Shown here piece by piece: positions 2,658 to 61,934 of a stretch of DNA of 64,000 nt. The position numbers and the translations under genes were made by a program. The notes beneath the pieces were generated by a model. That model saw only the letters and a program-made list of their open reading frames with translations, did no database searches and was not told where the DNA came from. Position 1 is the stretch's first letter, and every line of letters starts with the position of its first letter. This DNA is from Malacoraja senta (lineage: Eukaryota): the NCBI GenBank assembly GCA_038087875.1, contig CM075988.1, positions 19,346,001 to 19,410,000 of the forward strand, read 5' to 3'.

Positions 2658-5153
2658 TAACTGTTTCTTAAATGATGGGATAGTCCCAGCATCAACTACC
2701 TCCTCTGGCAGCTTGTTCCATACACCCAACACCCTTTGTGTGAATAAGTGAGAGGAGTAGAATTAGGCCATTCGGCCCATCAAGTCTCCCAATCATCTAT
2801 TGAATCATGGCTGATCTATCTCTCCCTCCTAACCCCATTCTCCTACCTTCTCCCCATAACCTCTGACATCCTTGTCTCTCTCAACTTTGTGTTAAAAGAA
2901 AACAAGACATTTGTTCCAATCTCATAGCTAGAAATTTGCAGATCAGGCAACATCCTTTAAGATCTCCTTTGCACTATGAGAAATGACTGGAACAGGAGGC
3001 TGTGCTCAGGCTGTGGTCTAACTGGTGTGTGCAGTTCGAGCATAACCTCCCTCTTTTAATATTCTTTGCCTTAGTTAATAAACAAAAGCATCCCAGATAC
3101 TTCTATAACCACCCAAACATTTCCCCAGGGTGGAAATGTGAAAGACTCATGGGCATGGGTTTAAAGTGAGAGGGCCAAAGTTATTTACTGAGTGGTGGGT
3201 GCCTGGAACGCGCTGCCAGGAATAGTGGTGGAGGCAGATACGATTGTGGCATTTAAGAGTCTTTTAGATAGGCACATAGATAAGCAAGGAATGGAGGGCT
3301 ATGGATCGCATGCAGCCAAAGGAGATTCGTCTATCATGGTGTCATGTTCGGCACAGAAATTGTGGGCCGAAGGGCCTGTTCCTGTGCTGTACTGCTCTAT
3401 GTTCTAAATTACCTGCACTGCCACTGGTAATGACCTGTGTACATGCACTTCTCATGTAACATGAGACATGTAGTGACCAAGGACCTGTGTAGATCACAAA
3501 ATCATGTCTATGACTATAGCCTGGATATCAGCTGTCCTGGTTTTGGGTAGCATGCAAAACAAAGCTTTTCACTGTACCTCGTTACACCTGACAATAATAA
3601 AACTCAACCTAAACCAAGTCATTACCTGTCCCAAAACTTGCAATGCAGGGCGCATCCACTTTTCTCAACTATTCCTCCCTTTACAAGAAGTGATGTGTCC
3701 TAACAATGTGCAAGTGATAAAGTGCAGCATCGGATCTGTAGATTTATACACGTCGTTGCAAGATTTCCAACACTCAGTGCTGGCCAGTCTCGTTAACAAC
3801 ACAACTGGTGCCCAAGGATGTCTATGGAGACCAGAGCAACAGAGTGACCTCAGCTACACAGCCCAGCATCTGGTTAATGACTGCACCAGCAACCTCTGTA
3901 AATGGGTGTCTGATAGTGAATAGCCACCAGTACCTCGTTCTCCAAGACTTGAGCTGCTGATTACAGCAGAGCAAATCCCAGAGGGACTGGCGTCTGAGTC
4001 ACAGAGACAGAAATGATTCTGTAAATGAAATCAGAACGCCCAGCTGCTCCACTTCTCCCCGTGAGCAGGGCTTAGCATTTAGAAACACAGGAACAAACCT
4101 TTCTTCAGCCAGTTAGAGTACTCAAGCATGTTATGCTTTGCATTGTAAAATACCCCAAAGATTCATTAGCGGAGAAAGCCAACATTGCAGAAGTACCATT
4201 CATGCAATGTTTAGTTCTCTAGTGTTCTCAGCCAAGGTCAGATGTTTCACTCTGATCCAGCATGACCTACTACAGATACAGTGTTTCCATACATTATCAT
4301 TCCTTATTAATCCTATTCCTCATCATTCCATGCTCAATTTATGGGCATTAGGGTGCTGTCAGTTTTACTAGTTTTGTGTTAGCTCTATCGTCCCCTGTGT
4401 TAGGCCAGTTTCTTCCCAGCTGCTATCAGGCAACTGAACCCAACTAGAGAGTGGTCCTGACCTACAATCAACCCCATTGGAGACCTTCGGACTATCTTTA
4501 ATCAGATTTTACTGGACTTTATCTTGCACTAAATCAACCCGGCGTGCACAATCAAATAAGATCAAATAGAACAAGTTGTCCGACAACTTTAGGCTGTGCA
4601 CGCCATACGCGTGAAGAAGAAGAAGTGGACGGCGTGATTGCAATCTTGTACAGCCTATTCACCAATTGGATAGCACGCACCAAAAAAAAATTGTCACTGT
4701 ACCTCGGTACATGTGACAATAATAACAAACACTAAACTGCTTCCCAATCCTACAGCAGTGTGAGAGGTTACTCAGGTGAATTCACTCTTGCCACTGAGTT
4801 AGAAGGTTTGGAGTGCAGCCCACGCTGCAAAAATTCATGCAAAACCTGCGCTGGTTCTTTGATGCATTGCCCAAGTGTCTCTCTCCTTGGCTTTCTCCAT
4901 TGCCCTAAGCCTATACCCTCTAGTTTTAGAATCCTCTACCCTGGGAAAAAGACTCTGAGTGTTCACTTTATCCGTGCCCCTCATGACCTTGAACACCTCA
5001 TTAACTTCACCCCTCAGCCTCCTATGCTCCAAAGGAAAATGGTCCCAGCTTATCCAAACTCTCCCTAACTAAAGGCCACAAGCCCAGGTAACATCCTGGT
5101 GAAGCTCTTTATCACTCTTTCTAAATATCACGCAACAACCAGAAATTTTAGTT

Positions 5154-5360
5154 AGACAAAAGTGCTGGAGGAACTCAGCAGGTGCAGCAGCATCTATGGA
5201 GCGAAGGAAATAGGCAACGTTTCGGGCCAAAACCCTTCTTCATGTCTCGGCCCAAAACGTTGCCTATTTCCTTTGCTCCATAGATGCTGCTGCACCCGCT
5301 GAGTTTCTCCTGCACTTTTGTCCACCTTCGATTTTCCAGCATCTGCAGTTCCTTCTTAAA
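5154..5360. mobile_element. Inverted pair of Penelope-like terminal fragments
   Basis: ~75-bp inverted arms; 14-bp TSD CAGAAATTTTAGTT (5140-5153/5361-5374). Confidence 0.88.
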
Positions 5361-6845
5361 CAGAAATTTTAGTTTGTACTAACAAGCAATAGTTACTCAT
5401 GACAGGAATCTCCTGCTCAAAATAGAAGCCTGATTTTTAACATAGGAGGTTGTTCGGAATGTATTGAAGGATGCAAAACAAAGGTGAAAATAAACTGAGG
5501 GAGCAATGCAGTTGAAGTGTTTTCTAATTCAGAGAAGACAGGAATATTCCTGAAAATAAGAAAATATCTTAATTTTATTCGCGCCTTGAGAAAAAGGTCA
5601 AATAACAATCACGGGAATTAACAGACAGCTAGCTTAACATGGCCAGTGGGAGAAATATTCAAAGCTATTTTAAAAAGGAGCAAGTCAAGTGCACTTAATG
5701 AGAACAAAACTAATAATTTTGAACTGACAAGAGTTCTAAAAGGTAGGTCAGGCCCAACAAATTAATTAGAATTGTTTTAGATGATGCTAATGATAGGATT
5801 GGTTGTTGGTAAAAATCCTGTTCACTTGACTTTGAGAACGTGTTTGGTGTGATGTGTGTTTTTTTCCGGTTGTATACTGGGCTAATCTATTGACTGGGCC
5901 AGGGAGTTGATTACCGACAGCATGGAACTGATCGCAGGTTTGGTGTGTGGGGGCTATATTTCAGAATACTTGAAGCCTTTCTTCCAAATTGATTGATTGA
6001 TTTATTAATTGAAAGTTTCAGCATGGAAACAGGCCTTTCCGCCCACCGAATCCATGCCAACCATCGATCACTTGTTTCACACTAGTTCTATGTTATCCCA
6101 CTTCCCCATGCACTCCCTACACACCAGGGGCAACCAACAAACCTGCACATCTTTGGGATGTGGGAGGAAACCGGAGCACCAGGAGGAAACCCACGTGGTC
6201 ACATGAAGAACAGGAAAATTCCACACACACAGCGCCCAAGATTAGGATTGGACCCGGGTCTCTGGCACGTGGGGATGCAGCTCTACCAGCTGTGCCAGTG
6301 CGCCACCCAATGTTTCATGGAGTGAAAATTATTGCTTACCCGGTGTCTCCGTTCTCCTTATTACGGCTTGTGTGTTATTTTCCTCTGTTTTTGTGTTTCA
6401 TTTCATCTTATCTGTAAATCTGCTTTTTAAAGTGCATTTGGAAACTATTTTCTAGATCTTTGGCCCCCTTGGGACATATTAACATTCACAGAGCGAGGGT
6501 GAACAGGAGTTGCTAAGCATTAGCAAATCCTGCAGGAACAATATAAAAATTAGTTTTAAAAATTCTGCTTTAGTTTTGCTTAGTTTAGAGATACAGCATG
6601 GAAAAAGATCCAGCCCACCAAGCCCGCGCTGACCAGTGATCATCTGTACACTAGTTCTATCCTACTCACTGGGGGGCAATTTACAGAAGCCAATTAACCT
6701 ACAAACCTGTACGTCTTTGAAAACTCCGTACATATACAACTCCGTACAGATATCATTTGTGGTCAGGAACACAAGGTGCTGGAGTAACTCAGCAGGTCAG
6801 GCAACATCAATAGGTGATGTTTCGGGTCTCTACTTTGCGTCCTTT

Positions 6846-8247: not shown

Positions 8248-8485
8248 TATATTGGGAAATGAGCCAGGCCAGGTGGCTGATGTTTCAATGGAAGGGCATT
8301 TTGTGGATAGTGAGCATCTCCATAAGCTTGAACTATTTTAACTCCCATTCCCATACTGACCTTTCTGTTCTGGGCCTCCTCCATTGCCATAGTGACGCTA
8401 CAAGCAAATTGGAGGAACAGCATCTCATATTTTACTTCATGTAAACCAGCGATATGAACGTTGAATTCTCTAATTTTAGGTAACA
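8248..8485 (+). mobile_element. Penelope-like element GIY-YIG fragment
   Basis: YIG at ~8248; NYFNSHSHTDLSVLGLLH...LEEQHLIFY; homologous to 35680-35950. Confidence 0.8.
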
Positions 8486-17600: not shown

Positions 17601-19583
17601 ACCATTCTAGACTACCATCAAAATGCCACAGCTTGCAACTACTAGAGTTAGATAGAGCTCTCGGGGCTAGTGGAATCAAGGGATATGAGCAGAAACCTCC
17701 TCCTGCACCCATTTTCTATGTTTCTATGTTTCCATGTTTCTTGCAAAGTCACCACCGTCTGACTAAAAAAACTCCCGCTCTTCTCCTTTTTAAAGGCAGG
17801 TCCTTTTATTCTTCTCTGTAGACCCTTCTCAACCCAAAACATCACCTATCCATGTTCTCTAAAGATGCTGCCTGAACTACTAAGTTTACATGCAAAATGT
17901 CTTTCCTACTATAGAAACAAAGAACTGCAGATGCTGGTCAATGCAAAGAACGGCGTCAAGTGCTGGAGTAACTCAGATGGTCACACAGCATCTCTGGAGA
18001 ACATAAGTTCATAAATTATAGGAGCAGAATTAGGCCATTCAAACTATTGTCTACTCTGCCATTCAATCATGGCTGATCTATCTTGCCCTCTCAACCCCCA
18101 TTTCCTGCCTTCTCCCCATAACCCCTGGCACCCGTACTAATCAAGAATCTATCAATCTCTGCCTTAAAAATATCCATTGTCTTCCGTGGCAATGAATTCC
18201 ATTGGTTCACCACCGTCTGACTAAAAAAACTCCCGCTCTTCTCCTTTTTAAAGGCAGGTCCTTTTATTCTTCTCTGGAGACCCTTCTCAACCCAAAACAT
18301 CACCTAGCCATGTTCTCTAAAGATGCTGCCTGAACTACTAAGTTACTCCAGCACTTGGTTCATTCTGTTCTAGTATACATGCCAGAATGTAAAAGGAGCA
18401 TTGAAGATAAAGGCCACTCCACACTGCATTTCTCTGGCATTGCCATTGTCAGTCCACTTGATGAGTCACCCATTGTCTCCGATGGTTTAATTGTACTATC
18501 TCAATGCTATACATTACCATAAAATCCATAGGTTAAAAGATATGTGCACACTCAATCACTGGACATATTCAGGATTGAAACCTATAGACCTTTGAACAGT
18601 TTGGTAATCATAAAACATTTGGATTGTATCGGAAAGTGTGCAGGACTTTTAAAAGGCATTGTACAGAAATATGGATAGGAAGGGTTTAGTGGGCGATGGG
18701 CCAAATGCAGGCAAATGGGACTAGCTCAATATGCCAATTTGGTCAGCATTGCAAGGTGAGCCAAAGGATTAGTTTTGGTTCTGTACAGCTCTATAGAAAC
18801 GTAGAAATATAGAAAGTAGGTACAGGAGTAGGCCATGCGGCCCTTCGAGCCAGCACCGCTATTCAACATGATCATGGCTGATCATCCAGAATCAGTACCC
18901 TGATCCTGTTTTTCCCCATATCATAGATACATAGATACATAGAAAATAGGTGCAGGAGTAGGCCATTTGGCACTTCGAGCCTGCACCGCCATTCAATATG
19001 ATCATGGCTGATCATCCAACTCAGTATCCCGTACCTGCCTTCTCTCCATAACCCCTGATCCCCTTAGCCACAAGGGCCACATCTAACTCCCTCTTAAATA
19101 TAGCCAATGAACTGGCCTCCACTACCCTCTGTGGCAGAGAGTTCCAGAGATTCACCACTCTCTGTGTGAAAACGTTTTTCCTCATCTCGGTCTTAAAGGA
19201 TTTCCCCCTTATCCTTAAGCTGTGACCCCTTGTCCTGGACTTCCCCAACATCGGGAACAATCTTCTTGCATCTAGCCTGTCCAACCCCATAAGAATTTTG
19301 CACGTTTCTATAAGATCCCCTCTCAATCTCCTAAATTCTAGCGAGTATAAGCCAAGTCTATCCAGTCTTTCTTCATATGAAAGTCCTGACATCCCAGGAA
19401 TCAGTCTGGTGAACCTTCTCTGCACTTCCTCTATGGCTATAATGTCCTTCCTCAGATTTGGAGACCAAAACTGTACGCAATACTCCAGATGTGGTCTCAC
19501 CAAGACCCTGTACAACTGCAGCAGAACCTCCCTGCTCCTATACTCAAATCCTTTTGCTATGAAAGCTAACATACCATTCGCTT

Positions 19584-19923
19584 GGTACACAAAAATGCTG
19601 GAGAAACTCAGCGGGTGCAGCAGCATCTATGGAGCGAAGGAAATAGGTAACGTATCGGGCCGAAACCCTTCTTCAGACTGATAGGGGGTGGGGAGAAGAA
19701 AGGAAAAAAGGAAAATGCGGAGGAGGAGCCCGAGGGCTGGGGGAGGGGAGGAGACAACCAGATGGCTGATGAAGGGGAGGGGAACGTTTCGGGCCGAAAC
19801 CCTTCTTCAGACTGATAGGGGGTGGGGAGAAGAAAGGAAAAAAGGAAAAGGCGGAGGAGGAGCCCGAGGGCTGGGGGAGGGGAGGAGACAACCAGATGGC
19901 TGATGAAGGGGAGGGGTTTACGT
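19584..19923 (-). mobile_element. Penelope-like terminal-repeat insertion with internal 134-bp tandem duplication
   Basis: 7-bp TSD TTCGCTT (19577-19583/19924-19930); empty site visible in sibling CR1 at ~33490; units 19649-19782 and 19783-19916. Confidence 0.85.
19783..19812 (-). ncRNA. Minimal type I hammerhead ribozyme-like motif (second of a tandem pair)
   Basis: Same core on the minus strand; partner copy at 19649-19678 has GATAC instead of GAAAC. Confidence 0.65.
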
Positions 19924-22479
19924 TTCGCTTTCTTCACTGCCTGCTGCACCTGCATGCCTACTTTCAATGACTGGTGTACCATGACACCCAGGTCTCGCTG
20001 CATCTCCCCATTTCCTAATCGGCCACCATTTAGATAATAATCTGCTTTCCTGTTTTTGCCACCAAAGTGGATAACCTCACATTTATCCACATTATACTGC
20101 ATCTGCCAAACATTTGCCCACTCACCCAGCCTATCCAAGTCACCTTGCAGTCTCCTAGCATCCTCCTCACAGCTAACACTGCCCCCCAGCTTAGTGTCAT
20201 CTGCAAACTTGGAGATGTTGTCTTCAATTCCCTCATCCAGTTCATTAATATAAATTGTAAATAGCTGGGGTCCCAGCACTGAGCCTTGCGGTACCCCACT
20301 AGTCACTGCCTGCCATTGTGAAAAGGACCCGTTTACTCCTACTCTTTGCTTCCTGTTTGCCAGCCAGTTCTCTATCCACATCAATACTGAACCCCCAATA
20401 CCGTGTGCTTTAAGTTTGTATACTAATCTCTTATGTGGTACCTTGTCAAAAGCCTTCTGAAAGTTCAGATACAACACATCCACTGGTTCTCCCCTATCCA
20501 CTCTACTAGTTACATCCTCGAACAATTCTATAAGATTCGTCAGACATGATTTACCTTTCGTAAATCCATGCTGACTTTGTCCAATGATTTCACCACTTTC
20601 CAAATGTGCTGCTATCCCATCTTTAATAAGTGACTCTAGCAGTTTCCCCACTACCGATGTTAGACTAACTGGTCTGTAATTCCCCGTTTTCTCCCTCCCT
20701 TCTTAAAAAGTGGGGTTACGTTTGCTACCCTCCAATCCTCAGGAACTACTCCAGAATCTAAAGAGTTTTGAAAAATTATCACTAATGCATCCACTATTTC
20801 TGGAGCTACTTCCTTAAGTACTCTGGGATGCAGCCTATCTGGCCCTGGTGATTTATCGGCCTTTAATCCATTCAATTTACCCAACACCACTTCCCGACTA
20901 ACCTGGATTTCACTCAGTTCCTCCATCTCCTTTGACCCGCGGCCCCCTGCTATTTCCGGCAGATTATTTATGTCTTCCTCAGTGAAGACGGAACCAAAGT
21001 AGTTATTCAATTGGTCCGCCATAACCTTGTTCCCCATGATCAATTCAACCGTTTCTGACTGCAAGGGACCTACATTTGTTTTAACTAATCTCTTTCTCTT
21101 CACATATCTATAAAAACTTTTGCAGTCAGTTTTTATGTTCCCTGCCAGTTTCCTTTCATAATCTATTTTCCCTTTCCTAATTAAGCCCTTTGTCCTCCTT
21201 TGCTGGTCTCTGAATTTCTCCCAGTCCTCTGGTATGCTGCTTTTTCTGGCTAATTTGTACGCATCATCTTTTGCTTTGATACTATCCCTGATTTCCCTTG
21301 TTATCCATGGATGCACTACCTTCCCTGATTTATTCTTTTGCCAAACTGGGATGAACAATTTTTGTAGTTCATCCATGCAGTCTTTAAATGCCTTCCATTG
21401 CATATCCACCGTCAACCCTTTTAGAACTAATTGCCAGTCAATTTTGGCCAATTCACGTCTCATATCCTCAAAGTTACCTTTCTTTAAGTTCAGAACCGTT
21501 GTTTCTGAATTAACAATGTCACTCTCCATCCTAATGAAGAACTCAACCATATTATGGTCACTCTTGCCCAAGGGGGCACGCACAACAAGACTGCTAACTA
21601 ACCCTTCCTCATTACTCAATACCCAGTCTAGAATAGCCTGCTGTCTCGTTTGTTCCTCTACATGTTGGTTTAGATAACTATCCCGCATACATTCCAAGAA
21701 ATCCTCTTCCTCAGCACCCCTGCCAATTTGATTCACCCAATCTATATGTAGATTGAAGTCACCCATTATAACTGTTTTGCCTTTATTGCACGCATTTCTA
21801 ATTTCCTGTTTGATGCCATCCCCAACTTCACTACTACTGCTAGGTGGCCTGTACACAACACCCACCAGCGTTTTCTGCCCCTTAGTGTTTCGCAGCTCTA
21901 CCCATACCGATTCCACATCCTCCAAGCTAATGTCCTTCCTTTCCACTGCGTTAATCTCCTCTCTAACCAGCAACGCTACCCCACCTCCTTTTCCTTTCTC
22001 TCTATCCCTCCTGAATATTGAATATCCCTGGATGTTCAGCTCCCAGCCTTGGTCACCCTGGAGCCATGTCTCCGTGATCCCAACTATATCATAATCATTA
22101 ATTGCTATCTGCACGTTCAACTCATCCACCTTATTACGAATGCTCCTTGCATTGAGACACAAAGCCTTCAGGCTTGTTTTTACAACGCCCTTACCCCTTA
22201 TACAATTATGTTGAAAAGTGGCCCTTTTTGATTTTTGCCCTGGATTTGTCTGCCTGCCACATTTACTTTTCACCTTGCTACCTATTGCTTCCGCCCGCAT
22301 TTTACACCCCTCTGTTTCTCTGCTCACCCATTTAAGAACCCCACCACCTCTTATTCTCTGTTTATTATTGTTTTCTTCTTTCCCCCCTACATGTTGGGTC
22401 TGAGTGCTTTCCTTCTCTGCCTCCTGCCTCACACACTGTCTAATAACATTCTCTATTTGAGTCCCTCCCCCCAACCATT

Positions 22480-22640
22480 CTAGTTTAAAGTCTCCCCAGT
22501 AGCCTTTGCAGATCTCCCCGCCAGGATATCGGTCCCCCTCAGGTTCAAGTGCAACCCATCCTTTTTGTACAGGTCGAACCTTCCACAAAAGAGGTCCCAA
22601 TGATCCAGAAATTTGAATCCCTGCCTTCTGCACCAGTCCT
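22480..22640 (-). pseudogene. CR1 ORF1 C-terminal SGNH esterase-like fragment
   Basis: Manual translation GFKFLDHWDLFCGRFDLYKKDGLHLNLRGTDILAGRSAKATGETLN*; DGLH is the SGNH block V DxxH motif typical of CR1 ORF1; not in the ORF track in this frame. Confidence 0.85.
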
Positions 22641-23871
22641 AACATATCCCTTGATTCCGTTAGCCCTAAGAGCTATATCTAACTCCCTCTTGAATACATC
22701 CAGCGAATTGGCCTCCACTGCCTTCTGTGGCAGAAAATTCGACAGATTCAGAACTCTCTGGCTGAAAACGTTTTTCCTCATCTCTGTCCTAAATGGCTAC
22801 CCCTTATTATTAGACTGTGACCCCTGGTTCTGGACTCCCCCAACATCGGGAGCATTTTTCCTGCATCTAGCCTGTCCAATCCCTTAAGAATTTTATATGT
22901 TTCTATAAGATCCCGCCTCATCCTTCTAAATTCCAGTGAATATAAACCCAGTCGATCCCATCACATTCCAAACACACGTCGGACCCGCCATCCAGGGAAT
23001 TAACTTGGTGAATCTATGCTGCACTCCCTCCCTGTAACTCATCTCGTTGAGCAACAGAGAATCTCGAGGGGTTGGGTACCCTACTCTACACTTTTACGTT
23101 CTTAGAATAGTGGCTAAGAATTGCAACAACAATCTGTTAAACAGAGACTTTACTGATGCAAAAGCTATTCAGTCATGTGGATTAACATATTTAAATTTTA
23201 AGTTAATGATTGGCGAAAATGAGAGGGATTAGTAAATTGCTGGTGGGGTTTGGAGCAATTGATTGACTTCCTCTGATAGAAATTTCCATTAAAATCATTG
23301 ATAGAAATACAAATTTGCTCAACTGCCAGCTTTGCAAGGCTGGAAATGCCTTTGTAACAAACTTAAGCAAAATACTTAGTAAAAAGGCATTCAAATTAAT
23401 TAACACCAAATTCAATCATGTTACAAAAATGTTCATCTTATTCAATTAGCTTCAAGTGTTTGAGACACATTATGACCAATTGCTTTAGTAATTCTTCATG
23501 ATTTGATGATAAAAGATAAATTCAAAATTGTAATTTCCCTGTTTAAAATTAGCCAATTAGTTTCATTTCCCTACAATTATATTTGAGTCTTTCCTCCATT
23601 AAGTCCCAGTAACTTTTCCCTGAGATAATGTGTTTTCAGGAAGTAAATCTGAATGCCAATGATTTATTGCAATTTTCTTAAAGCCATGGCAATATTGTTG
23701 CTCAAATTGCAATGTAAATTAAAGTCATTGCTTCAGTCTTACAGCAATGATGCTGGGTGGTGAATTGTGAATGACAAGGTTAATAGGGTTGATAAACTAA
23801 GATTACAGTGCATCGAAGCGTGCAGGTCCGCCCAACACATTATAATAATGTCGAGAGAACCTTTGACATTT

Positions 23872-24934: not shown

Positions 24935-25060
24935 GTTCAAGAAGGAACTGCAGATGCTGGAAAATCGAAGGTAGACAAAAATGCTGGAGAAACTCAGCGG
25001 GTGCAGCAGCATCTATGGAGCTAAGAAAATAGGCAACGTTTCGGGCCGAAACCCTTCTTC
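24935..25060 (-). mobile_element. Penelope-like terminal fragment
   Basis: 10-bp TSD AGGGCAACTT (24925-24934/25061-25070); hammerhead-like core at 25035-25062. Confidence 0.88.
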
Positions 25061-25451
25061 AGGGCAACTTAATCTTTATTCACACAATGATTTACTTGAG
25101 TAGGCATGCAAGCCACTGCTAATAACTTCTCTCCTGTTTTATTGTTGCAAGTTATCACTTCTTACACAAAACCACTTGGACTCGGATATTACCCATATAA
25201 TGAACAGGCCATGCTCACTCTGCTGTTAAGGGGCTAGTCTTCCCTGATCTTCAAACTCAAGCTCTCCTTCCTGCAATGGTTGTTCCCAGTTTGTTTTTTT
25301 CCGACCCAAAATGTCGTCTCTCCATTCTCTCCCCAGATGTTGTTCAGCTGGAAAGGGTGCAGAGAAGATTTATGAGGATGTTGCCAGGACACACGTGAGC
25401 CTGATAGAGAGATCTATAGAGAGAGGTTTAGCTCGCTACAACTTTATTCCT

Positions 25452-28480: not shown

Positions 28481-29656
28481 CACAAACCTACCTCAGCTAC
28501 CTCACTGTGGACTTTGTATAAGGTTGCACCAAGCCCTTCATCTTGCACTATTGTGGTCTGGTTAGCTCGTACAACTTATTTATTTGTTTTGTTGTGTTGT
28601 TGCAGTAATGTGCCTGTAAGTGCAGCAAATAAGAATATCAGTGACTCTTGAGGTAAAGGAAAACAATGTTGAAATTCTGGTAATAATCTTCCAAACATTT
28701 GTAGATTTAACTGTTACCTTGAGGGCAGAAAACTGGAAATGTTACACTTAACCACACTGATCATTTGAACCTCAGCGGCAGAGAATATTCTGGGAAGATA
28801 TATCAGGGACAAGTGGGGATTGATTAGAGAAAGCCAGGAGCGATTTGTCAAAGACAATTCCTGCCGAACTACCTTGATAGAATTAAATGTACACAGATGC
28901 ACCCTCTTAGTTTAGTTTATTAGTTTAGTTTAGACATGCAGCGTAGAAACAGGCCCTTTGGGCCACCGAGTCCACGCCAACCATCGATCACCCCATACAC
29001 AGCACTATCCTGCACACTAGGTATGGTGGTGCAGCGGTAGAGTTGCTGCCCTGCAGTCCTTATAGCGCCAGACACCCGGGTTCGATCCTGGCTACGGGTG
29101 CATGAGTGCATGGAGTTTGTACGTTCTCCCCGTGACCCGTGTGGGTTTTCTCAGAGAACTTTGGTTTCCTCCCACACTCCAAAGACGTACAAGTTTGTAA
29201 TTGGCTTGGTGTAAATGTAAAAATTGTCCAAAGTGTAGATTGTGTAGGAAGGAACTGCAGATGCTGGTTTAAATTGAAGATAGACACAAAAAGCTGGAGT
29301 AACTCAGCGGGTCTCGACCCGAAACATCACCGGTTCCTTTTCTGCAGTGATGCTGCCTGACCCCCTGAGTTACTCCAGCTTCTTGTGTCTACCTTGATAG
29401 AATTATTTGTTGAAGTAACAGAAAAAAAAGGATGTAGAGGGAGAAGCATTTGATACAATATGCATGTGCCTCCACAGAAATGTGATAAGGTTCCACATCA
29501 ATATTGAAGGCCATGGAATAAAAGGAGAGGTGGCAGCAGAGGAGGAGAATTGGCTGAGTAACAGGCACAGAGAAAGAAGTCGAGCAAGATGTTTCAGTCT
29601 GGAGCGAGGTGTACAGCCGAGCTCCCGGGCGCAAGCTGGCACCATTGTCTTCCTAA

Positions 29657-32841: not shown

Positions 32842-33651
32842 AGATACATAGATACATAGAAAATAGGTGCAGGAGTAGGCCATTCGGCCCTTCGAGCCTG
32901 CACCGCCATTCAATATGATCATGGCTGATCATCCAACTCAGTATCCCGTACCTGCCTTCTCTCCATACCCCCTGATCCCTTTAGCCACAAGGGCCACATC
33001 TAACTCCCTCTTAAATATAGCCAATGAACTGGCCTCAACTACCCTCTGTGGCAGAGAGTTCCAGAGATTCACCACTCTCTGTGTGAAAACGTTTTTTCTC
33101 ATCTCGGTCTTAAAGGATTTCCCTTATCCTTAAGCTGTGACCCCTTGTCCTGGACTTCCCCAACATCGGGAACAATCTTCCTGCATCTAGCCTGTCCAAC
33201 CCCATAAGAATTTTGTAAGTTTCTATAAGATCCCCTCTCAATCTCCTAAATTCTAGCGAGTACAAGCCGAGTCTATCCAGTCTTTCTTCATATGAAAGTC
33301 CTGACATCCCAGGAATCAGTCTGGTGAACCTTCTCTGCACTCGCTCTATGGCTATAATGTCCTTCCTCAGATTTGGAGACCAAAACTGTACGCAATACTC
33401 CAGGTGTGGTCTCACCAAGACCCTGTACAACTGCAGTAGAACCTCCCTGCTCCTATACTCAAATCCTTTTGCTATGAAAGCTAACATACCATTCGCTTTC
33501 TTCACTGCCTGCTGCACCTGCATGCCTACTTTCAATGACTGGTGTACCATGACACCCAGGTCTCGCTGCATCTCCCCATTTCCTAATCGGCCACCATTTA
33601 GATAATAGTCTGCTTTCCTGTTTTTGCCACCAAAGTGGATAACCTCACATT
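32842..33651 (-). mobile_element. CR1 3' fragment, same young subfamily as 18923-22642
   Basis: Near-identical to 18923-20095 without the insert; (TATCTATG)n tail; TATCAT at both junctions (32836-32841/33652-33657); splits a Rex1-like fragment. Confidence 0.93.
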
Positions 33652-35182: not shown

Positions 35183-35679
35183 TTCTGTTCACCACACTAC
35201 AGGACGGATGTGGTAGCATTATGGAGAGTGCAAAAGACATCTGCTAGGTTCAACAAACGGTGAGCTGGAGGGACTTAGGCAGCATCCGTGGAGGGAATGA
35301 GCAAGAGATGTTGCAGGTCAAGACCCTTCATCTGGACAGGAGGATTAGAGGTAAAGCCTGTATAGTCATGCAGAATGCATAGAAACATAGAAAATAGATA
35401 CAGGAGTAGGCCATTCGGCCCTTCGAGCCAGCACTGCCATTCAATATGATCATGGCTGATCATCCAAAATCAGTACCCCATTCTGGCTTTTTCCCCATAT
35501 CCCTCGAGTCCCTTAGCCCTAAGACCAGATCCTTCAGCCCACCTCATCCATGCCCATTTAAGCTGGTCCCATTTACGTACACAAAAATACATAAAGTGCA
35601 GGAATAACTCAATGGCTCAGGCAGCATCTCTGAAGAACATGGAAAGGCGACATTTCCTCCTCTAACCTCATTATGACCT

Positions 35680-35950
35680 TCGGTGCTCCTCGTATGGCCT
35701 GCTTTACATTGGCGAGACCAAACGTGGAAAGGGCTGCTGTTTTGTTGAACACTTGCACTTGGCCAGTTGGATCTCCTGGTTGCTAACCATTTTAACTACC
35801 CTTCCCATTCCCATACCGACCTTTCTGTCCTGGGCCTCCACCACTGCCAGAGTGAAACTGCACACAAGCTGAAGGAACAGCACCTGATATTCCACTTGGG
35901 TAGCTTACAACCCAGCAGTATGATCATGGAATTGTTCAATTTTAGGTAAC
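35680..35950 (+). mobile_element. Penelope-like element GIY-YIG endonuclease fragment
   Basis: RCSSYGLLYIGETKR (YIG motif) then VANHFN..SHSHTDLSVLGL...KEQHLIFHLGSLQP. Confidence 0.85.
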
Positions 35951-37544: not shown

Positions 37545-37636
37545 CGGCACAAAATACTGGAGTAACTCAGCGGGACAGGCAGCATCTCTGGATAGAAGAA
37601 ATGGGTGACGTTTTGGGTCGAGACCCTTCTTCAGAC
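37545..37636 (-). mobile_element. Penelope-like terminal fragment
   Basis: 14-bp TSD TCATCTAAGAGGCT (37531-37544/37637-37650). Confidence 0.88.
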
Positions 37637-40381
37637 TCATCTAAGAGGCTTTCAGATAGGCACAGGGAATGGAGGAATATGGATCACATGCAGCAAGAGG
37701 AGATTAGTTTAACTTGGCATCATGCCCGACACAGACATTGTGAGCTAAAGAGTCTATTCCTGTGCGTACTGTTCTAAGAGGGGAATAGATTGGGTAAATA
37801 GACGGGGTAGGGGTATCAAGGACTTGAGGGCATTTTTAAGGCGAGAGGGGAAAGATTTAATAGGAACCTGAGGGGCAACTTTTCAACACAGTATATGGAA
37901 TGTAGTATAAATGTAGATATCAGGAAGGAGCTGCCAGAGGAAATAGTTGAGGCAGGTACAATAACAGCATTTAAAGGACATTTGGACAGGTACATGGATA
38001 GGAAAGATTTAGAGGAGCATGGGCCAAACACAGGCAATTGGGACTTGCCTAGATTGGGCATCGTGGTCGGTATGGACAGTTTGGGCTGAAGGCCCTGTTT
38101 CCCTGCTGTATGACTCCATGGCTTAGTAACAGATGGATTAAGAATTATTGTAGGCACACTGATCGGAAGTCAAGGACTAAACATTCAAGGAAGATGCCGA
38201 GGAAAGATGTTTTTATGAAGAGACTGCTGAGGATCTGGAACACGCTGCTGTCAGGGGAGATGAAATGAAGTAATTTCAGAGTTTCAGAGGGTATTGGATA
38301 AAGCTCTGAGAGAATTAACTGACAGAGCCATGGGGGAAGAATGGGAAAATGTGACAAACCAGGCTGGTCAAAGAGATAGCATACTCAATGGGCAGAATAG
38401 TCTCCTGTGTCATATTAACGCTGTGTCTCAAAGACATTTCCTTTAGATTGCAGAATCTTTTATTTAGGATAAATGCAAGAGCTGTAACAAAGCACCAAGT
38501 GACCGTGATCTAATCCCAACGCTACAGATTTGAGGGATTGTTGTTATAGAAGGTCAGCATGATGGCGCAGTGCTAGAGTCGTTGCCTTAGTGCTTGCAGC
38601 GCCGGGTTCGTCTGTACGGAGTTTGTACATTCTCACCGTGATCTGCGTGGGTTTCTCCGAGATCTTCGGTTTCCTTCCACACTCCAAAGACGTACAGGTA
38701 TGTAGCTTAATTAGCTTGGTAAATGTAAAATTGGTCCCTAATCTGTGAAGAATAGTGTTAATATGCGGGGGGGGGGGGGGGTCGCTGGTTGGCGCGGACC
38801 CGGTGGGCCAAAGGGCCTGTTTCCGCGCTGCATCTCTAAAACTAAAAATTTCAAACAAAACTCAAAGTGCTGAAGGAATGCAGCAGATCAGGCAGCATCT
38901 GTGGAGGGAATGTACAGGCGACCTTTCAGGTTGGGACCATCTGCAGACTGATGGAGTGCGAAGGGGGTGCGAAAGCTGGAAAAGGGATGCAGGGGCAGGA
39001 CAAAGCCTGGCAAGTGATAGGTAGAAAGACATGTTGACCGTAGTAGTACGTTTTGGTTAGAAGATGGTCAAAGAGCAGGTGAGCTGCAGGAATCACAGAG
39101 GGGGAGCAGTAGGAGAGGGTCTCACACTACTCCAAACCAGATAGAAGCAGAGTGTTATAGAGCTGTCCATTTACACTGAGTATGGCAAAGGTTGCTGCCT
39201 ATAATGGTGTTTACATATACGATACGATAAGATACAATAAAACGTTATTCATCCCTGGAGGGAAATTGGTCTGCCGACAGTCACAACACACAAGGTACAT
39301 AAAAACTTGAAATTAAAAGTGAAAACAAAGAGAAAAAGACAAGCTGTTTAAGAAGGAACTGCAGATGCTGGAAAATCGAAGGTAGATAAAAATGCTGGAG
39401 AAACTCAGCGGGTGCAGCAGCATCTATGGAGCGAAGGAAACCCTTCTTCAGACAAGAAAAAGACAGGGAACTGTTGGCTGGCAGTATTTTTCAACAAAAA
39501 CATGCCCTTCATGAGGATAAGGGATTGATTATCAAAGGAGTGCAAGAACACTGTTGCGGCCCCAAAGTTCGCACATGCAAGGATCATTCTCTGTTTGTGT
39601 CTCCACACTAACTGCACGCCACTATGACGGTGTTACGCCACATACCGATGGCCTTGCAATTGAATATTGCATAATCGTGGCTGGTGGAGTTGGAACAGTA
39701 TTTTCTGCATCTCCAGTTGAGAGGACACAACTCTCCACAGTTTACAATGTCACCAAGTCAGCAGTCAAACAAAAATGTATTCAGTATTAGAGTGAGCAAA
39801 TAAACCAAATGCAGGATTGGCAGCCGTTCAGTCCTCGGTCTCCGTGGATAGATGCTCGAAATACTGTAAGGCCTTCTGTGGCTGCTCATCTAATGTGAAT
39901 AGTGGCGTCTCGTAATCCCAATTCCTATAACAGATACCGAAGGCCATGTTGGACTTTGCCGCATGTTTGAAGCAGATAGCAACGCTACTCCGTCAGTTCA
40001 AGGTACCTAGGGAGATTAACAAAAATAAAACATTTCTGTTGTTTGAACTGTGGGCCAGCCAGTGATCAGAGCACTTTGCCATGCCCTAGATATTCATTGC
40101 TAATGTGTTTATTGTTTTCAGATGCATTTTGCAAACAATTGATAGAGCGCGCAGCAACTGAAACATTAAATTGATTTCTGGGATGAGATGATGGTGTTTC
40201 AAGGAAAGATGGACTCAATGGGCCCCTTACTCCCTCGGGCTATGTGTGGCAAGTGAATTTGTTGAAATGATTGGAAGAGATTTATCAGGAAAATGCTGAG
40301 AAGGTGATCAGGGGGGAATCTGGAATTGGAATGTAGCATCATATGTAGAGAGGTTCCTGTGAGTACGATTCCCCAGGCTGG

Positions 40382-41890
40382 GTGAAGGTAGGACCACTGA
40401 AGGATAAAGGAGGGAATTTGTGCTTGGAGTCTGGGGATGTAGGCGAGGTACTAAACTACTACTTTGCATCAGTTTACACCAAGGAGAAGGTCATGGGGGA
40501 CAGTGGGATCCGTGTGGAAAATAGTAATATGCAAGGGCAGTTTGAGATTAAGAAGGAGAGGTATTGGGGCTCTTGGAGCATCAGGTGGATAAATCCCCAG
40601 GACCTGATGGGATTTATCCCAGGTTACTGAAAGAGGCAAGAGAGGAAATTGCAGGAGCCCTGACGAAAATCTTTGCGTCTTCACTAACCACAGACATGGT
40701 CCCAGAGGACTGGAGATTAGTTAATGTTTTCCCTTTATTTAAGTAGGGAGAATCCAGGGAATTGTAGGCCAGTGAGCCTCACGTCAGTGGTAGAGAATCC
40801 ATTGGAGAGAATTCTTCCGGATAATATTTTCTCCCGTTTGGAAGAGAATAGAATAATTAGGAACAGTCAGCATGGCTTTGTTTATGGCAGGTTGTGTCTT
40901 AAGCCCCTGTCCCACTTACGTGTCCTTGACACGCTAATTACGCGACCTCGCATTGAGGCGGGACGGTCGCACGCGACTTCATGCGTCCGCACAGCCGTCT
41001 GGAGCGTGTGACGTCATTTGAAGATGGACACAAAATGCTGGAGTAACTCAGCGGGACTGACAGCATCTCTGGTGAAAAGCAATGGGTGATGTTTCGGGTC
41101 GAGACCCTTCTTTAGTCTGAAAGAAGGGTCTTGACCCGAAACGTCATCCATTGCTTCTCTCCAGAGATGCTGCCGGTCCCGCTGAGTTACTCCTGCATTT
41201 TGTGTCTATCTTCAATTATCTTGGCCCCGCTCTGGGAGTAGAAGTGGGGGCGGATCCGGACCGCAACGGCCGTGAGCCCCAGGCCGAGCTCGGCGATTGT
41301 TTGCCTGCTTCTGCTGCTGTTGGAGGTGAGACGTTGCGTTGCGCCAGGGTCTTGGGCCTGTCCCACTTTGGCCGTCAGTTACGCGACAGGCCGGTGGCGC
41401 GCGAAGATTTCGTTCGCTACAAAATTTCGGAGCCCCGCGCGATACCGCGCACAACTCCATACCCCTCCGCGCTTCTCAGTGGGACCGGCCCCGCGCGGCC
41501 ACGTGATGCCCGTGCGCATCAATGTGACGATGAGGTCGTGTAATTTGCGTGCTAAGGACACGTAAGTGGGACAGGGCCTTTACTATCTTTTTGAATTTTT
41601 TGAGGATGTGACAAAGTTGATCGGTAAGGGTAGGACAGTGAATGGAGTGAATGTATTTTAGTAAGGCATTTGATTAAGTCCACCCATGGTAGGCTGATCC
41701 ATAAGGTTAAGATGCATGGGATTAACTTGGTCACATGGATTCAGAACAGGTTTACTGATGGAGGATAGAGAGTTGTGGTGAAACAAAATTATCCAGGCTG
41801 CAGGTCTGTGACCAGTGGAATTCTGCAGGGATCTGCACTGGGGACCTCTGCTGTTTATGAAAAAATATAAATGACTTGATTGTAAATTAT
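40382..41890 (+). mobile_element. Degraded CR1 ORF2 (RT) fragment interrupted by a MITE
   Basis: KSPGPDGIYPRLLKE, PEDWR, RPVSLTSVV, QHGF, then EFFEDVT after the MITE. Confidence 0.88.
40902..41579. mobile_element. MITE, PIF/Harbinger-like, GC-rich, containing a Penelope-derived hairpin
   Basis: ~48-bp TIRs AG.CCCTGTCCCACTTACGTGTCCTT; TTA TSD (40899-40901/41580-41582); extra internal TIR-like GGGCCTGTCCCACTT at ~41354. Confidence 0.9.
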
Positions 41891-42409: not shown

Positions 42410-42516
42410 GTGTTTAAGAATCGCCGTCTGAAGAAGGGTTTCGGCCCGAAACGTTGCCTATTTCCTTCGCTCCATAGATGCTGCTGCACCCGCTGAGTTT
42501 CTCCAGCATTTTCGTG
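42410..42516 (+). mobile_element. Penelope-like terminal fragment
   Basis: 14-bp TSD TACCTCRGGATACT (42396-42409/42517-42530). Confidence 0.85.
42426..42457 (+). ncRNA. Minimal type I hammerhead ribozyme-like motif
   Basis: CTGAAGA-A-GGG(TTTCGG)CCC-GAAAC-GTT: CUGANGA box, short stem II, GAAA box, palindromic ACGT stem III. Confidence 0.7.
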
Positions 42517-42869
42517 TACCTCAGGATACTTCCAGTTTCCAGCCCCGCGACGTGGATGCTTCTGCTATGGTGGGCCACAAGTAGCCAAATAGCTCAGTTG
42601 GGGCATCTTGATCGGTATGGACGAGCTGGGCTGAAGGGGTTGTTTCTATGACTCTATGATCTTTCTGGCAGGAAAGCAGAGGGAGCCTGCGATCCACCCT
42701 CTGATACATTGTCAGAGCTGTTGGGTAACTCACCTCTTACACAATCCGGCTGATGCTGCCCAGTAATTCAACTGAGCACAGAGGTCATGTTTCACCTTAA
42801 ATTTTCATCAACGACAGCATTTTACCAAATTTGCTGATAGCGGATGGCGGATGTGCAGGATGTGCAGGA

Positions 42870-47683: not shown

Positions 47684-47883
47684 NNNNNNNNNNNNNNNNN
47701 NNNNNNNNNNNNNNNNNNNNNNNNNNNNNNNNNNNNNNNNNNNNNNNNNNNNNNNNNNNNNNNNNNNNNNNNNNNNNNNNNNNNNNNNNNNNNNNNNNNN
47801 NNNNNNNNNNNNNNNNNNNNNNNNNNNNNNNNNNNNNNNNNNNNNNNNNNNNNNNNNNNNNNNNNNNNNNNNNNNNNNNNNNN
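47684..47883. other. Assembly gap (200 N)
   Basis: Run of N adjoining a G-rich low-complexity tract. Confidence 1.
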
Positions 47884-49639: not shown

Positions 49640-49880
49640 CTCCAGGAGGAGTTGTGTGGGCGGGAAGCCATAGGTAAGGCTCCGCTGGCAGTGCCTAGGA
49701 GAGGTCTGTCTCATAAAGCCACAATTCCAGGAGGAGTAGTGCAGGCGGGAAGCCTTAGGGAAGGCTCCGCTGGCAGTGCCTAGGAGAGGTCTGCTTCATA
49801 AAGCCATACTCCAGGAGGAGTTGTGCAGGCGGGAGACCGTGTGGACGGCTCCGCTGGCAGTGCCTAGTAGAGGCCTGCTT
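49640..49880 (+). repeat. ~84-bp tandem repeat x3 in the DIRS gag region
   Basis: TCCAGGAGGAGT recurs at 49641, 49726, 49810, each followed by GGCTCCGCTGGCAGTGCCTAG. Confidence 0.9.
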
Positions 49881-50600
49881 GAAAGCACCCTCTTTGCAAG
49901 AGGTGAGTGCAGAAGGGCAGATACGCTCTGACCCTGAGTCCGACGACTTCCAAAGGGAGGGCAGGCAGCTGTCAGAGCTGACACCGTGTGCAGCACGTTT
50001 TGCCATGTCGTCGGATGCTGGTGAGCCTCTGGGTGAGGAACTTGCCACCAGCATAAATTACCAAGTCTCACATCAGCTACAGGAGCTGACAATGGATGAG
50101 ACAGTAACGAAGTATGAAGCCCCAATCAACTGTGGACTGTTCAAAGTTCCTGTTGGGAACAGGAAGAATTGGGGTAAGATGGGCATACTAATGAAAGCCC
50201 AGGAGCATGTGAAGCTCCAGCATATTTTTAAAGTTGCTGGCATCTAGTATAACGAGCTTTGCCAGGATGGTGGATGGAGAGGGCATGACAAATTACAACA
50301 AAAGGCGCTATTGTGGAGTGCCCACTTTGAGATCAATTGCCTCCGCAAGATGCGATTAGACCAACCATCAATGCTAAATATGCTTCACTCTGCCAGCCTG
50401 GCACAGTGCAACTGGCACAGCTGTTTGGCGAGGATTTCGCACAGCAGGTGAAGGAGCTGGAGGAGGAGGCTAAGACGGCAGCCACATATTCACCAAAGCG
50501 GAAGTATCCCTATAAGGGAGCAGACTGGTCCGGGCAAGGGACGAGTCCAGCTACGATGCAGCGCAGTTGGCGTTCGGCTATAGCACCGCCACGGAGGTGA
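49879..50600 (+). pseudogene. DIRS gag-like ORF remnant
   Basis: IRPTINAKYASLC...LFGEDFAQQVKEL resembles DIRS gag C-terminus; position upstream of RT; frameshifted. Confidence 0.7.
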
Positions 50601-54559: not shown

Positions 54560-55340
54560 ACATCAAACATAGCACAGTACAGGCACAGGGACAGGCCCTT
54601 TGGCCCACAATGTCTTACTGTAACTATCTGTATATAATCCATATGTTGAGATAAACTGATCTCGTCTGCCTGCACCAGATCCACTTCCCTCCTTTCCCTG
54701 CATATCCATGTGCCTATCTAAAAGTCTCTTAAACACCACTATCATATCTGTCTCCACCACCATTCCAGGCTTTCCAGGAACCCACCATCCTCTATGTAAA
54801 AATGCCCAACGCATCTCCTTTAAACTTTGTCCATTTCATCTTAAAGCAATTCTCTCCTATCGTTTCTGTAGGTAGGAACTGCAAGTGCTGGTTTACACTG
54901 AAGATAGACACAAAATGTTGGAGTAACTCAGCGGGACATGCAACGTCTCTGGATAGAAGAAATGGGTGACGTTTCGAGTCTGAAGAAGGGTCATTCCTTT
55001 TATCCAGATATGCTGCCTGTCCCACTGAGTTACTCCAGCATTTTGTGTTGATCTTCCCTCTTATCTTTGACATTTCCACCATGGGAATAAGGTTCTGACC
55101 ATCTACCCTCTCTGTTCCTCTCATCATTTTATACATTACTAGCAGGTCTTCCCTCAACCACCGGTGCTCCAGAGAAAACAATCCAAGCTTGTCCAGCCTC
55201 TCCCTGGAGCTTGTATCTCCTAATCCAGGCAGCCTTCTGGTAGACCTCTGCACCCTCTCCAAAGCCTTTACATCCTTCCTGTAATGGGGTGACCAGAACT
55301 GCATGCAATACTCAAAATGTGACCTAAACAAGATCTTGCA
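54560..55340 (-). mobile_element. Old CR1 3' fragment interrupted by an inverted Penelope-like piece (~54865-55055)
   Basis: ORF track FEYCMQFWSPHYRKDVKALERVQR...ERLDKLGLFSLE. Confidence 0.85.
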
Positions 55341-55844
55341 GGTAAATGGCACAATTTCCTAAAATAAGCTGTGATACAGATTATGTGTTTGCTGGGACAG
55401 TTAAACAATCTTCTCCTGTGCCTCTGCACAACAAGGGAGCCAAGCGACCAGCTAATGCATTTGGCTTGGGTTGGTTGATGATGGAATGACAGGTACCATC
55501 TAGAGAACAGATACCTTGCCTTTCAAACAGTGCCATGAGGTTCAGTAGAGCACGCTGACAGATAATCTTTGCATCTCTGGAACAGTGCTATCACCAGCAA
55601 TTCTGAATCCCGTCAATCCTGCACCAGTGTTTTATATTCCCAAATCCCAGAGATATGCCTGAACACACAACCACCTGACTCATTGATGCAGACAGGCAAA
55701 CAGTTTTTGAGTCACTTGTGATTATCCGTTCTGATCTCTTAAGTGCATGGCGGTGTTGTTAGTTACCACTTTGCAAGTTTAACTGTTAGGTGTCCAGTTA
55801 GTATTCAAGAAAACTTTTCTGAGGTGAGTTGGTGAATCAATCTT

Positions 55845-56530
55845 ATCAATGGTATGAACACTGAATTCTCCAATTTCAAGCTGGCTCGAAGGGCCGAATG
55901 GTCTACTCCTGCACCTATTGTCTATTGTTAACCTCTCTCTTTTCACTCACCGCACACACTTTTCTCCCACCATCTCCCACTCCCCAGTCACCCTCCTCCT
56001 TACTCTCAACTCCCATCCCCAAATCCCATATTTCCTTTCTTATCCCCCCTCTTTCCCCTCACCCCCGTCTTCCGCCTATATCGCTCCCTCCAGCTTTACA
56101 TTTCACTCTTGCTCTTCTTTCCTTATCTAAAACCCCTTTGTCTCTTTTTCACCTCTAGTCTTCGTCACTTACTCCACCCATCCACCAACCAATCTCCTCA
56201 CACCTGAGTTCACCTATCACTTGCCACCCTTTGTCCCACCCCCACCTCTCTTTTCCACTTTTCTCCCCCGACTCCACCAGTCTAAAGAAGGGTCCCGACC
56301 CGAAACATCAGGGCTAACAAAATTCAGGGATATGGGGAGAAAGCAGGAACAGGGTACAGATTTTGGATGATCAGCCATTATCATATTGAATGGCGGTGCT
56401 GGCTCAAAGGGCCGAATGGCCTACTCCTGCGCCTATTTTCTTTATTTCTATGTTTCTATCACCTGTCCATTCCCTCTACAGATGCAGTCTGACCCGCTGA
56501 GGTTCCTTCAGCATTTTGTGTTTTGTGCAT
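55845..56530 (+). mobile_element. Penelope-like 3' end (ORF terminus, pyrimidine-rich UTR, terminal repeat) with two CR1-tail insertions
   Basis: GMNTEFSNFK, CT-rich tract, degenerate hammerhead at ~56282-56310; links the short terminal fragments to a GIY-YIG element. Confidence 0.75.
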
Positions 56531-56974: not shown

Positions 56975-57392
56975 GTGGTTTCAGGCAGACCAAACAACTA
57001 ATTTCATTTCATTCCCATTTCCATTGCAGTTTCAAGCACATGGCTGGTCAACCAATTCATTGCATTTTCATTTCATTTCCATTTCCATTGCAGTTTCAAG
57101 CACAGGGCAGGCCAAACAACTCATTGCATTTTCATTTAATTTCCATTTCCATTGCAGTTTCAAGCACAGGGCAAGTCAAACAACTCATTGCATTTTCATT
57201 TAATTTCCATTTCCATTGCAGTTTCAAGCACAGGGCAGACCCAACAACTCATTGCATTTTCATTTCATTTCCATTTCCATTGCAGTTTCAAGCACAGGGC
57301 AGGCCAAACAACTCATTGCATTTTCATTTCATTTCCATTTCCATTGCAGTTTCAAGCACAGGGCAGGCCAAATAACTCATTGCATTTTCATT
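56975..57392. repeat. 64-bp minisatellite, ~6.5 copies
   Basis: CAGGGCAGGCCAAACAACTCATTGCATTTTCATTTCATTTCCATTTCCATTGCAGTTTCAAGCA starting at 57103, 57167, 57231, 57295, 57359 with more diverged copies upstream. Confidence 0.95.
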
Positions 57393-61727: not shown

Positions 61728-61934
61728 GACACACAAAAATGCTGGAGTAACTCAGCGGGCGAGGCAGCATCTCTGGAGAGCAGGAATGGGCGACGTTTCG
61801 GGTCGAGACCCAAGGTTCCCGACACAAAACGTCTTCCCATTCCTTCTCTCCAGAGATGCTGCCTCACCCGCTGAGTTACTCCAGCATTTTGTGTCTACCT
61901 TCAATTTAAACCAGCATCTGCAGTTCTTTCTTAC
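61728..61934. mobile_element. Inverted pair of Penelope-like terminal fragments inside a V-SINE
   Basis: 15-bp TSD ACAGGTTTGTARGTT (61713-61727/61935-61949). Confidence 0.85.

Follow-up and report, generated by a model that had tools for sequence, protein, structure and literature searches.

A tandem Penelope-like insertion in Malacoraja senta with its unit seam at, or one nucleotide before, a predicted hammerhead cleavage site

Can the seam between two retrotransposon units mark the place where the template RNA was cut by its own ribozyme? The question is raised by an insertion in a 64,000-nucleotide stretch of Malacoraja senta DNA (the window), which a preliminary description had taken for a tandem Penelope-like element (PLE) joined at its hammerhead cleavage site. 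The insertion (19584..19923, minus strand) is a 5'-truncated, partial tandem of a PLE 3' end, or pseudo-LTR. Positions within the element are given in its own sense, which is the minus strand, with 0 as the bond after GAAAC-GUU, the predicted hammerhead cut. The insert is bounded by a 7-bp target-site duplication (TSD), TTCGCTT, with the left copy at 19577..19583 and its repeat on the right at 19924..19930. The empty site is represented by a sibling LINE copy near 33455-33574 in the window (119 nt across the site are identical), and 4/4 runs contain a 347-nt skip across the insert, joining 19576 to 19924 with 7 ambiguous bases. Together, the TSD, the empty site and the skip fix the insert at 19584-19923 (340 bp). 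Read in the sense direction, it runs from the target (...CGAA) through ACGT, AAA, unit A (-134..0), unit B (-134..0) and +1..+65 to the TSD.

The insert interrupts a LINE on the minus strand at 18919..22672 (the left edge is approximate, and the 5' end lies outside the mapped part). The LINE encodes an APE endonuclease and a reverse transcriptase (RT) (Pfam matches Exo_endo_phos, E=3.1e-13, and RVT_1, E=2.6e-32) and ends in an 8-bp microsatellite tail, features that characterize CR1 elements; the clade name is taken from the tail type. Since the endonuclease and RT frames are open but for one frameshift and the LINE is 97.8% identical to its sibling copy across 822 bp, the PLE insertion is recent, in agreement with the earlier view that a young CR1-type element had been hit. 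An ATG in the PLE 3' part lies in frame with the RT C-terminus of the host LINE, giving a 201-aa open frame (19021-19626, minus strand) that is probably due to chance. LINE tails are doubled over 130 bp at 18793-19050. Elsewhere, the window contains a 64-bp array of 6.1 copies (57002-57392), an 85-bp array of 2.8 copies (49640-49890) and an N gap of 200 bases (47684-47883).

The tandem structure is real, as first described. Alignment and TRF (period 134, score 522) both recover two units of 134 bp on the minus strand, upstream unit A (19783..19916) and downstream unit B (19649..19782), each running from -134 to 0 and differing at exactly 2 sites (19654/19788 and 19716/19850; 98.5% identity). 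The 65 nt that lie 3' of the predicted cut (+1..+65; 19584..19648, minus strand) are unrepeated, and they end at the same base as the solo copy at 42426-42520. Unit A, read from 19916 to 19783, ends in CCCGAAACGTT and joins CCCCTCCCC, which places the seam (19782..19783, minus strand) either on the bond predicted to be cut (0) or 1 nt short of it (-1). Both placements are allowed because the base at 19783 is shared with native sequence upstream of the unit start, which is found in 68 contigs of X1 and has this base in common. The proposal that the units are joined at the predicted cleavage site is thereby borne out to within 1 nt. The GG microhomology slippage named as a competing cause does not fit, as the repeat extends by 0 nt on both sides and shares 1 nt with the native upstream sequence. 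A restart placed uniformly at random over -134..+105 would land in the 2-nt window with p ~0.008, and one confined to the 35-nt hammerhead region with p ~0.06, both values being post hoc and uncorrected for the number of inserts scanned. The window contains one such tandem.

The 5' junction bears on whether the same restart took place twice. Unit A is separated from the target by a 7-nt filler (19917..19923, minus strand) made of ACGT, which follows a 4-nt microhomology with the target (CGAA) and matches -4..-1, and of AAA. In the preliminary description, ACGTTTCG was a stub of a further unit that starts at about the same point as the others. Its match to -4..-1 stands, and the chance of ACGT falling in register is ~0.008. 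The non-target part, however, is ACGT alone (19920-19923), 4 nt and not 8, since TTCG belongs to the right TSD copy, and three extra bases (19917-19919) lie between the stub and unit A. The 5' junction and the hammerhead share an 8-nt exact match, made up of the CGAA also present in the target and of ACGT; the host LINE carries an equally long 8-nt exact match ~790 bp away. The host-LINE stretch at 20711..20726 (minus strand), which resembles the filler junction and could have been an alternative template, matches with a score of 12, a score reached by 1.3%, 3.0% and 7.5% of 400 resamples when symmetric queries of different widths are used. A lower chance value for this match (0/300 resamples) was set aside because the query had been trimmed after the match was known. 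The target end also resembles the hammerhead core (TGAAGAA...CGAA), and abortive second-strand priming could therefore yield the same four bases. Because the left edge of the stub is set by the CGAA microhomology and the host LINE matches equally well, the stub is not a clean second instance and lends partial, non-independent support to a restart at the cut.

What is predicted to cut at this bond is a minimal type I hammerhead. Hammerheads of this kind in PLEs carry an extra base after A9, a G10.1-C11.1 pair and a palindromic 15.2-16.2 (PMC4209133). Unit A shows all of these features: its motif (19783..19810, minus strand) has the core CUGANGA...GAAA followed by an NUH triplet, the extra A, a stem II of 3 G-C pairs plus U-G closed by G10.1-C11.1, and the palindrome ACGU as helix III. 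The earlier identification of a minimal Penelope-type core thus holds for unit A, whose core reads CUGAAGA-A-GGG(UUUCGG)CCC-GAAAC-GUU and is intact. The motif has no Rfam match; over the whole window, Rfam returned 0 matches at the gathering score and 6 weak matches, with 0 ribozymes among them. Sister PLE copies in the window also carry the motif in their terminal repeat. Both unit B and the solo copy at 42426 have a helix I of 2 bp in register. In unit A, the first pair is lost, as the 3' strand of helix I has been replaced by the start of the next unit. The mismatch at 19654 falls in the GAAA core of unit B and changes it to GAUAC. The locus is therefore not a working hammerhead dimer, with unit A deprived of its helix-I partner and unit B mutated in the core.

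Predicted folds add a further constraint. In equilibrium folds of 3/3 RNAs, the pairing probability of stem II is 0.0, and the core is engaged with the pyrimidine tract upstream of it or with downstream sequence; forcing stem II with an open core in unit A costs ~9 kcal/mol. By prediction, the pyrimidine tract of unit A (19783-19916, minus strand) forms pairs with the strand of the hammerhead core and so blocks the core. Removal of this tract by splicing, or a start downstream of it, could act as a switch. The fold of the whole insert has a z-score of -3.58, which is not evidence of function because part of it is due to base pairing between the two hammerhead copies, which are palindromic.

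The Penelope-like identity first assigned to the insert can be upheld: it is a PLE pseudo-LTR fragment with a hammerhead, a 5' truncation, a tandem and a TSD. Its family has the traits of endonuclease-containing (EN+) PLEs, namely 5' truncation, partial tandem and inverted structures, an optional tail and a TSD, with TSDs of 7, 10, 11 and 14 bp in 4/5 PLE copies tested. Family copies end 3' at +65, the standard end, or at ~+100, a further tail of ~35-40 nt. In X1 and X4, 443 and 747 contigs, respectively, run into unlike, A/T-rich sequence before 19584, and some continue into the tail. The insert itself has no ORF. The consensus of the native upstream sequence in X1 can be read as S-Q-F-C-stop, 10 nt before the unit start, and resembles the SNFR/FNFR-stop ends of two decayed ORF pieces (8250-8485 and 35666-35949). 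The unit start thus probably lies 10 nt past the PLE stop codon, to judge from this reading frame. The piece at 35666-35949 matches P0001 (E=1.8e-7), whose own GIY-YIG hit (E=0.0038) is below the Pfam cut-off and whose look-alikes are GIY-YIG clusters; 0/3 short ORF pieces were matched by Pfam. An older sister copy links an ORF end of this type (55842) to a hammerhead (56282). Decayed GIY-YIG C-terminal fragments of PLEs are found at 35577-35949, 8250-8485 (+) and 55842-55880 (+), the first of which meets an inverted PLE 3' end head-to-head. Pattern scans for further copies gave 0 matches in viral contigs, 0 in metagenome contigs and 1 in genome contigs; the last (L001), a stretch of a bacterial MAG with unrelated flanks, was taken as chance.

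Where do other copies of the family break? A search of the window with unit B and its 3' part gave 32 alignments, that is, the two units, two low-complexity matches (dropped) and 28 others. None of these 28 PLE-end alignments stops at 0 +/-1; one stops at -3, with a LINE inserted at +1, and one begins at 0, directly next to a LINE tail. Thirteen of the 28 start between -36 and -18 (these are alignment starts, some of which are not true ends). Solo copies of ~92-126 bp (42426-42520 on the plus strand; 24970-25062, 37545-37636 and 39340-39453 on the minus strand) begin between -27 and -31, where the hammerhead core has its 5' edge; this is the dominant 5' breakpoint of the family. In five places (5143-5362, 29240-29395, 41020-41220, 54874-55056 and 61731-61941), two PLE 3' ends form an inverted, head-to-head pair, joined mostly within or beside the hammerhead, with 0 at the cut. 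In view of the 13 starts at -36..-18 and of the five pairs that join elsewhere than at the cut, the hammerhead region is a general hotspot of RT accidents. Two copies (39440-39453, minus strand; 54978-54994, plus strand) have lost ~20 nt of stem II-III between short repeats. An older PLE end (56248-56521, plus strand) is broken by a LINE 3' fragment, which sits at +1 from the predicted cut and has what looks like a 4-bp duplication; this is a coincidence at the DNA level and an example of how matches to the cut site can arise by chance.

At the 5' breakpoint, a pyrimidine tract and then YCAGTCT are retained in four diverged copies that have native upstream sequence, an arrangement that fits a 3' splice acceptor or an initiator element. 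The common 5' ends lie near -30, and the unit start at -134 finds no support as a transcription start. For Penelope of D. virilis, a 3' splice acceptor is reported in PMC4209133.

RNA reads from two runs (X21 and X23) come from another, related organism and from libraries poorly suited to the purpose, of which ~1% and 5% were read; small-share runs (X17-X20) were left out of the comparison. Neither X21 nor X23 shows a pile-up of RNA ends at the cut or anywhere else at a threshold of 1/5 of the depth, and none of the loose ends listed (24/1,272) lies at the cut site. In X23, depth falls ~17-fold from bin 19664-19679 to bin 19680-19695, at the 5' edge of the core (19678-19679). With no pile-up of RNA ends, a stem II probability of 0.0 and the common breakpoints of the family elsewhere, the earlier reading of the tandem as a footprint of ribozyme activity is weakened.

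Taken together, these observations (the TSD, the start at +65, both units beginning at -134, the seam at 0/-1, the ACGT and AAA filler, and the CGAA microhomology with the target) make it quite probable that RT switched templates here, with or without cleavage of the RNA. Template jumping, suggested in the preliminary description, is a likely process, as both rounds stop at -134, restarts fall at 0/-1 and the bases between differ. The specific account tentatively favored here, which may well be wrong, is a single target-primed event with an end-to-end jump onto an RNA 3' end at the hammerhead, the end having been made by self-cleavage. The target would be nicked and reverse transcription primed at +65, after which RT would copy through the hammerhead, either uncut or across the nick, to -134. 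It would run off at the RNA 5' end there and move by a jump onto the -134..0 fragment at its 3' end, probably within one RNA molecule because both rounds stop at the same base. After a second run-off, three bases would be added and a third round begun at -1, and the product would be captured by the CGAA end of the target before second-strand synthesis. Such a product would be a dead copy, whose two point changes would have arisen later or as RT errors.

Several observations can be set beside this account. In its favor, unit A ends at 0/-1, unlike standard PLE restarts (+65 and ~+100). The different bases at the two seams, T between units A and B and AAA at the 5' junction, fit what would be expected of variable non-templated additions at run-off, as described for R2 in PMC2718515. 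Duplications at R2 junctions agree with the place where the ribozyme cuts (PMC3774820). For the lizard PLE PAc, one study describes a hammerhead that cuts when the PLE protein is present, a weak product attributed to priming at the template 3' end, and two RT start sites that bound a 30-40 bp tail (PMC11167929). The same study states that cleavage-dead PAc RNA inserts normally and that RNA-seq ends at the cut were not found (PMC11167929), and for Xenopus retrozyme dimers 8/9 are given as lacking cleavage (bioRxiv 10.64898/2026.07.22.740005). Against self-cleavage stand the single locus, the 0/28 other ends at the cut, the helix I of 2 bp, the stem II probability of 0.0 and a filler that can also be read as a host-LINE copy. 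No paper was found in the literature on whether a PLE RT accepts a cyclic-phosphate end.

The alternative that survives best is the same RT event without cleavage, in which the switch took place at the hammerhead for structural reasons; it is a real possibility, if on balance a doubtful one. The unit 5' end would pair with the core strand, ACGU would lie as an unpaired palindrome next to strong helices, and the source of the filler would be abortive second-strand priming by the CGAA end of the target or host-LINE sequence. Junctions, inversions and microhomology deletions do cluster across the hammerhead in the window copies, the panhandle of 5' end and core lies within 4 kcal/mol of the minimum-energy fold, and the core-like target end and the host-LINE match with its score of 12 each offer a source for the filler. 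PAc insertion proceeds without cleavage (PMC11167929). The known hotspots, however, are 5' stops (-36..-18), whereas the event here, with its 1 nt of homology, is a 3' restart. As for the panhandle, it is ordinary, ranking 10/80 among start points, and was rejected on that rank as a special cause of the -134 end. A switch without cleavage must also have met the scissile bond by a coincidence of 1 in 17 or rarer, with the filler's end at -1 as a second coincidence.

A single-unit insert could instead have been duplicated at the DNA level by slippage or end-joining, either while the second strand was being made or afterwards. The units have a common first base and 98.5% identity, and CGAAACGT is present in the hammerhead as well as at the 5' junction. 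Slippage between these 8-mers fits poorly, as it would have copied AAA into the internal seam, where a T is found. In addition, the window sequence has zero flanking microhomology, and the edge of the duplication would need to coincide with the 5' edge of the insert. Such a duplication is unlikely.

Rolling-circle reverse transcription of a 134-nt circular RNA, or of a retrozyme-type tandem source transcript, is very improbable. It would account for the head-to-tail arrangement and for the partial third round; a circular route to PLE tandems was proposed in 2014 (PMC4209133), and animal retrozymes are derived from PLE pseudo-LTRs (bioRxiv 10.64898/2026.07.22.740005). A covalent seam should repeat exactly, but T occurs once and AAA once; the unit begins at -134, which is not a cleavage product, and ligation would not rebuild the ribozyme; and +1..+65 lies outside the repeat. 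These differing seams and this unit start speak against the small circular RNA put forward in the preliminary description, and a go-back joint of the circle type was not seen among the 15/185 joints listed, from RNA of another, related organism in which the upstream unit sequence is poorly covered. Its retrozyme-like reading fails as well, the unit not being cut-to-cut and neither genomic unit holding an intact ribozyme. An assembly artefact is hardly credible: no independent read or contig crosses 19782/19783 among those listed (15/185 joints, 24/1,272 loose ends and 16 pieces), but 2 sites distinguish the units, and the outer junctions of the insert are clean, with the TSD on either side.

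If the jump onto a self-cleaved end is the right account, its consequence for PLE biology can be put more generally. It is possible, though rather unlikely, that the hammerhead cuts RNA in vivo within the retrotransposition complex, that RT reuses the cleaved 3' end as the acceptor of its jump and that a minority of copies carry seams at the scissile bond as a result. PLE tandems would then hold a countable genomic record of ribozyme activity and offer a route from PLE ends to retrozyme-like tandems. In the literature cited, the hammerhead of EN+ PLEs has low in-vitro activity, is dispensable for insertion in one reconstituted system and has no RNA ends found at its cut (PMC4209133, PMC11167929, PMC8557442), and the formation of PLE tandems is left unexplained (PMC2377424). 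A literature search weighted to non-subscription papers turned up no description of seams in PLE tandems that fall at the hammerhead cut. Should seams at 0/-1 recur genome-wide, their count would show that cleavage takes place in the germ line and link it to the way tandems form. The present evidence, one dead copy at a single locus, is suggestive.

Four known systems offer a comparison. In the retrozyme model, the monomer runs from cut to cut, so that ligation rebuilds the ribozyme. The unit found here (-134..0) does not, as it lacks all sequence 3' of the cut and leaves +1..+65 outside the repeat, and the insert does not contain the at least 2 consecutive complete hammerhead units by which retrozymes are recognized. 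It does resemble animal non-LTR retrozymes in being a tandem that is short and non-coding, consists of PLE pseudo-LTR sequence and has one hammerhead motif per unit (PMC7229834; bioRxiv 10.64898/2026.07.22.740005). The 5' junctions of R2, which record the cut of an HDV-like ribozyme, show a similar genomic junction or duplication edge at the ribozyme cut site, together with non-templated bases and microhomology (PMC3774820); the R2 cut defines the template's 5' end and is seen in many copies, whereas here it would define the 3' end that accepts the jump, in one copy. With the minimal type I hammerheads of PLEs, the motif shares the CUGANGA and GAAA core, the extra base before stem II, the G-C closing pair, a loopless palindromic helix III and a very short helix I (2 bp are reported for D. 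virilis Penelope in PMC4209133); it differs in its short stem II (3 G-C pairs plus U-G), in that neither genomic tandem copy is complete and in being a predicted motif. The closest likeness is to the partial tandems of EN+ PLEs such as Penelope, Poseidon and Neptune, which are also 5'-truncated, head-to-tail and flanked by a TSD (PMC8557442, PMC2377424, PMC11167929), with a hammerhead in the pseudo-LTR, an optional tail of ~35-40 nt and, in sister copies, head-to-head inversions. In contrast to these, the upstream copy stops at 0/-1 and not at +65 or ~+100, and both copies begin at one and the same 5' end. The insert is thus a PLE pseudo-LTR fragment that behaves like a PLE partial tandem.
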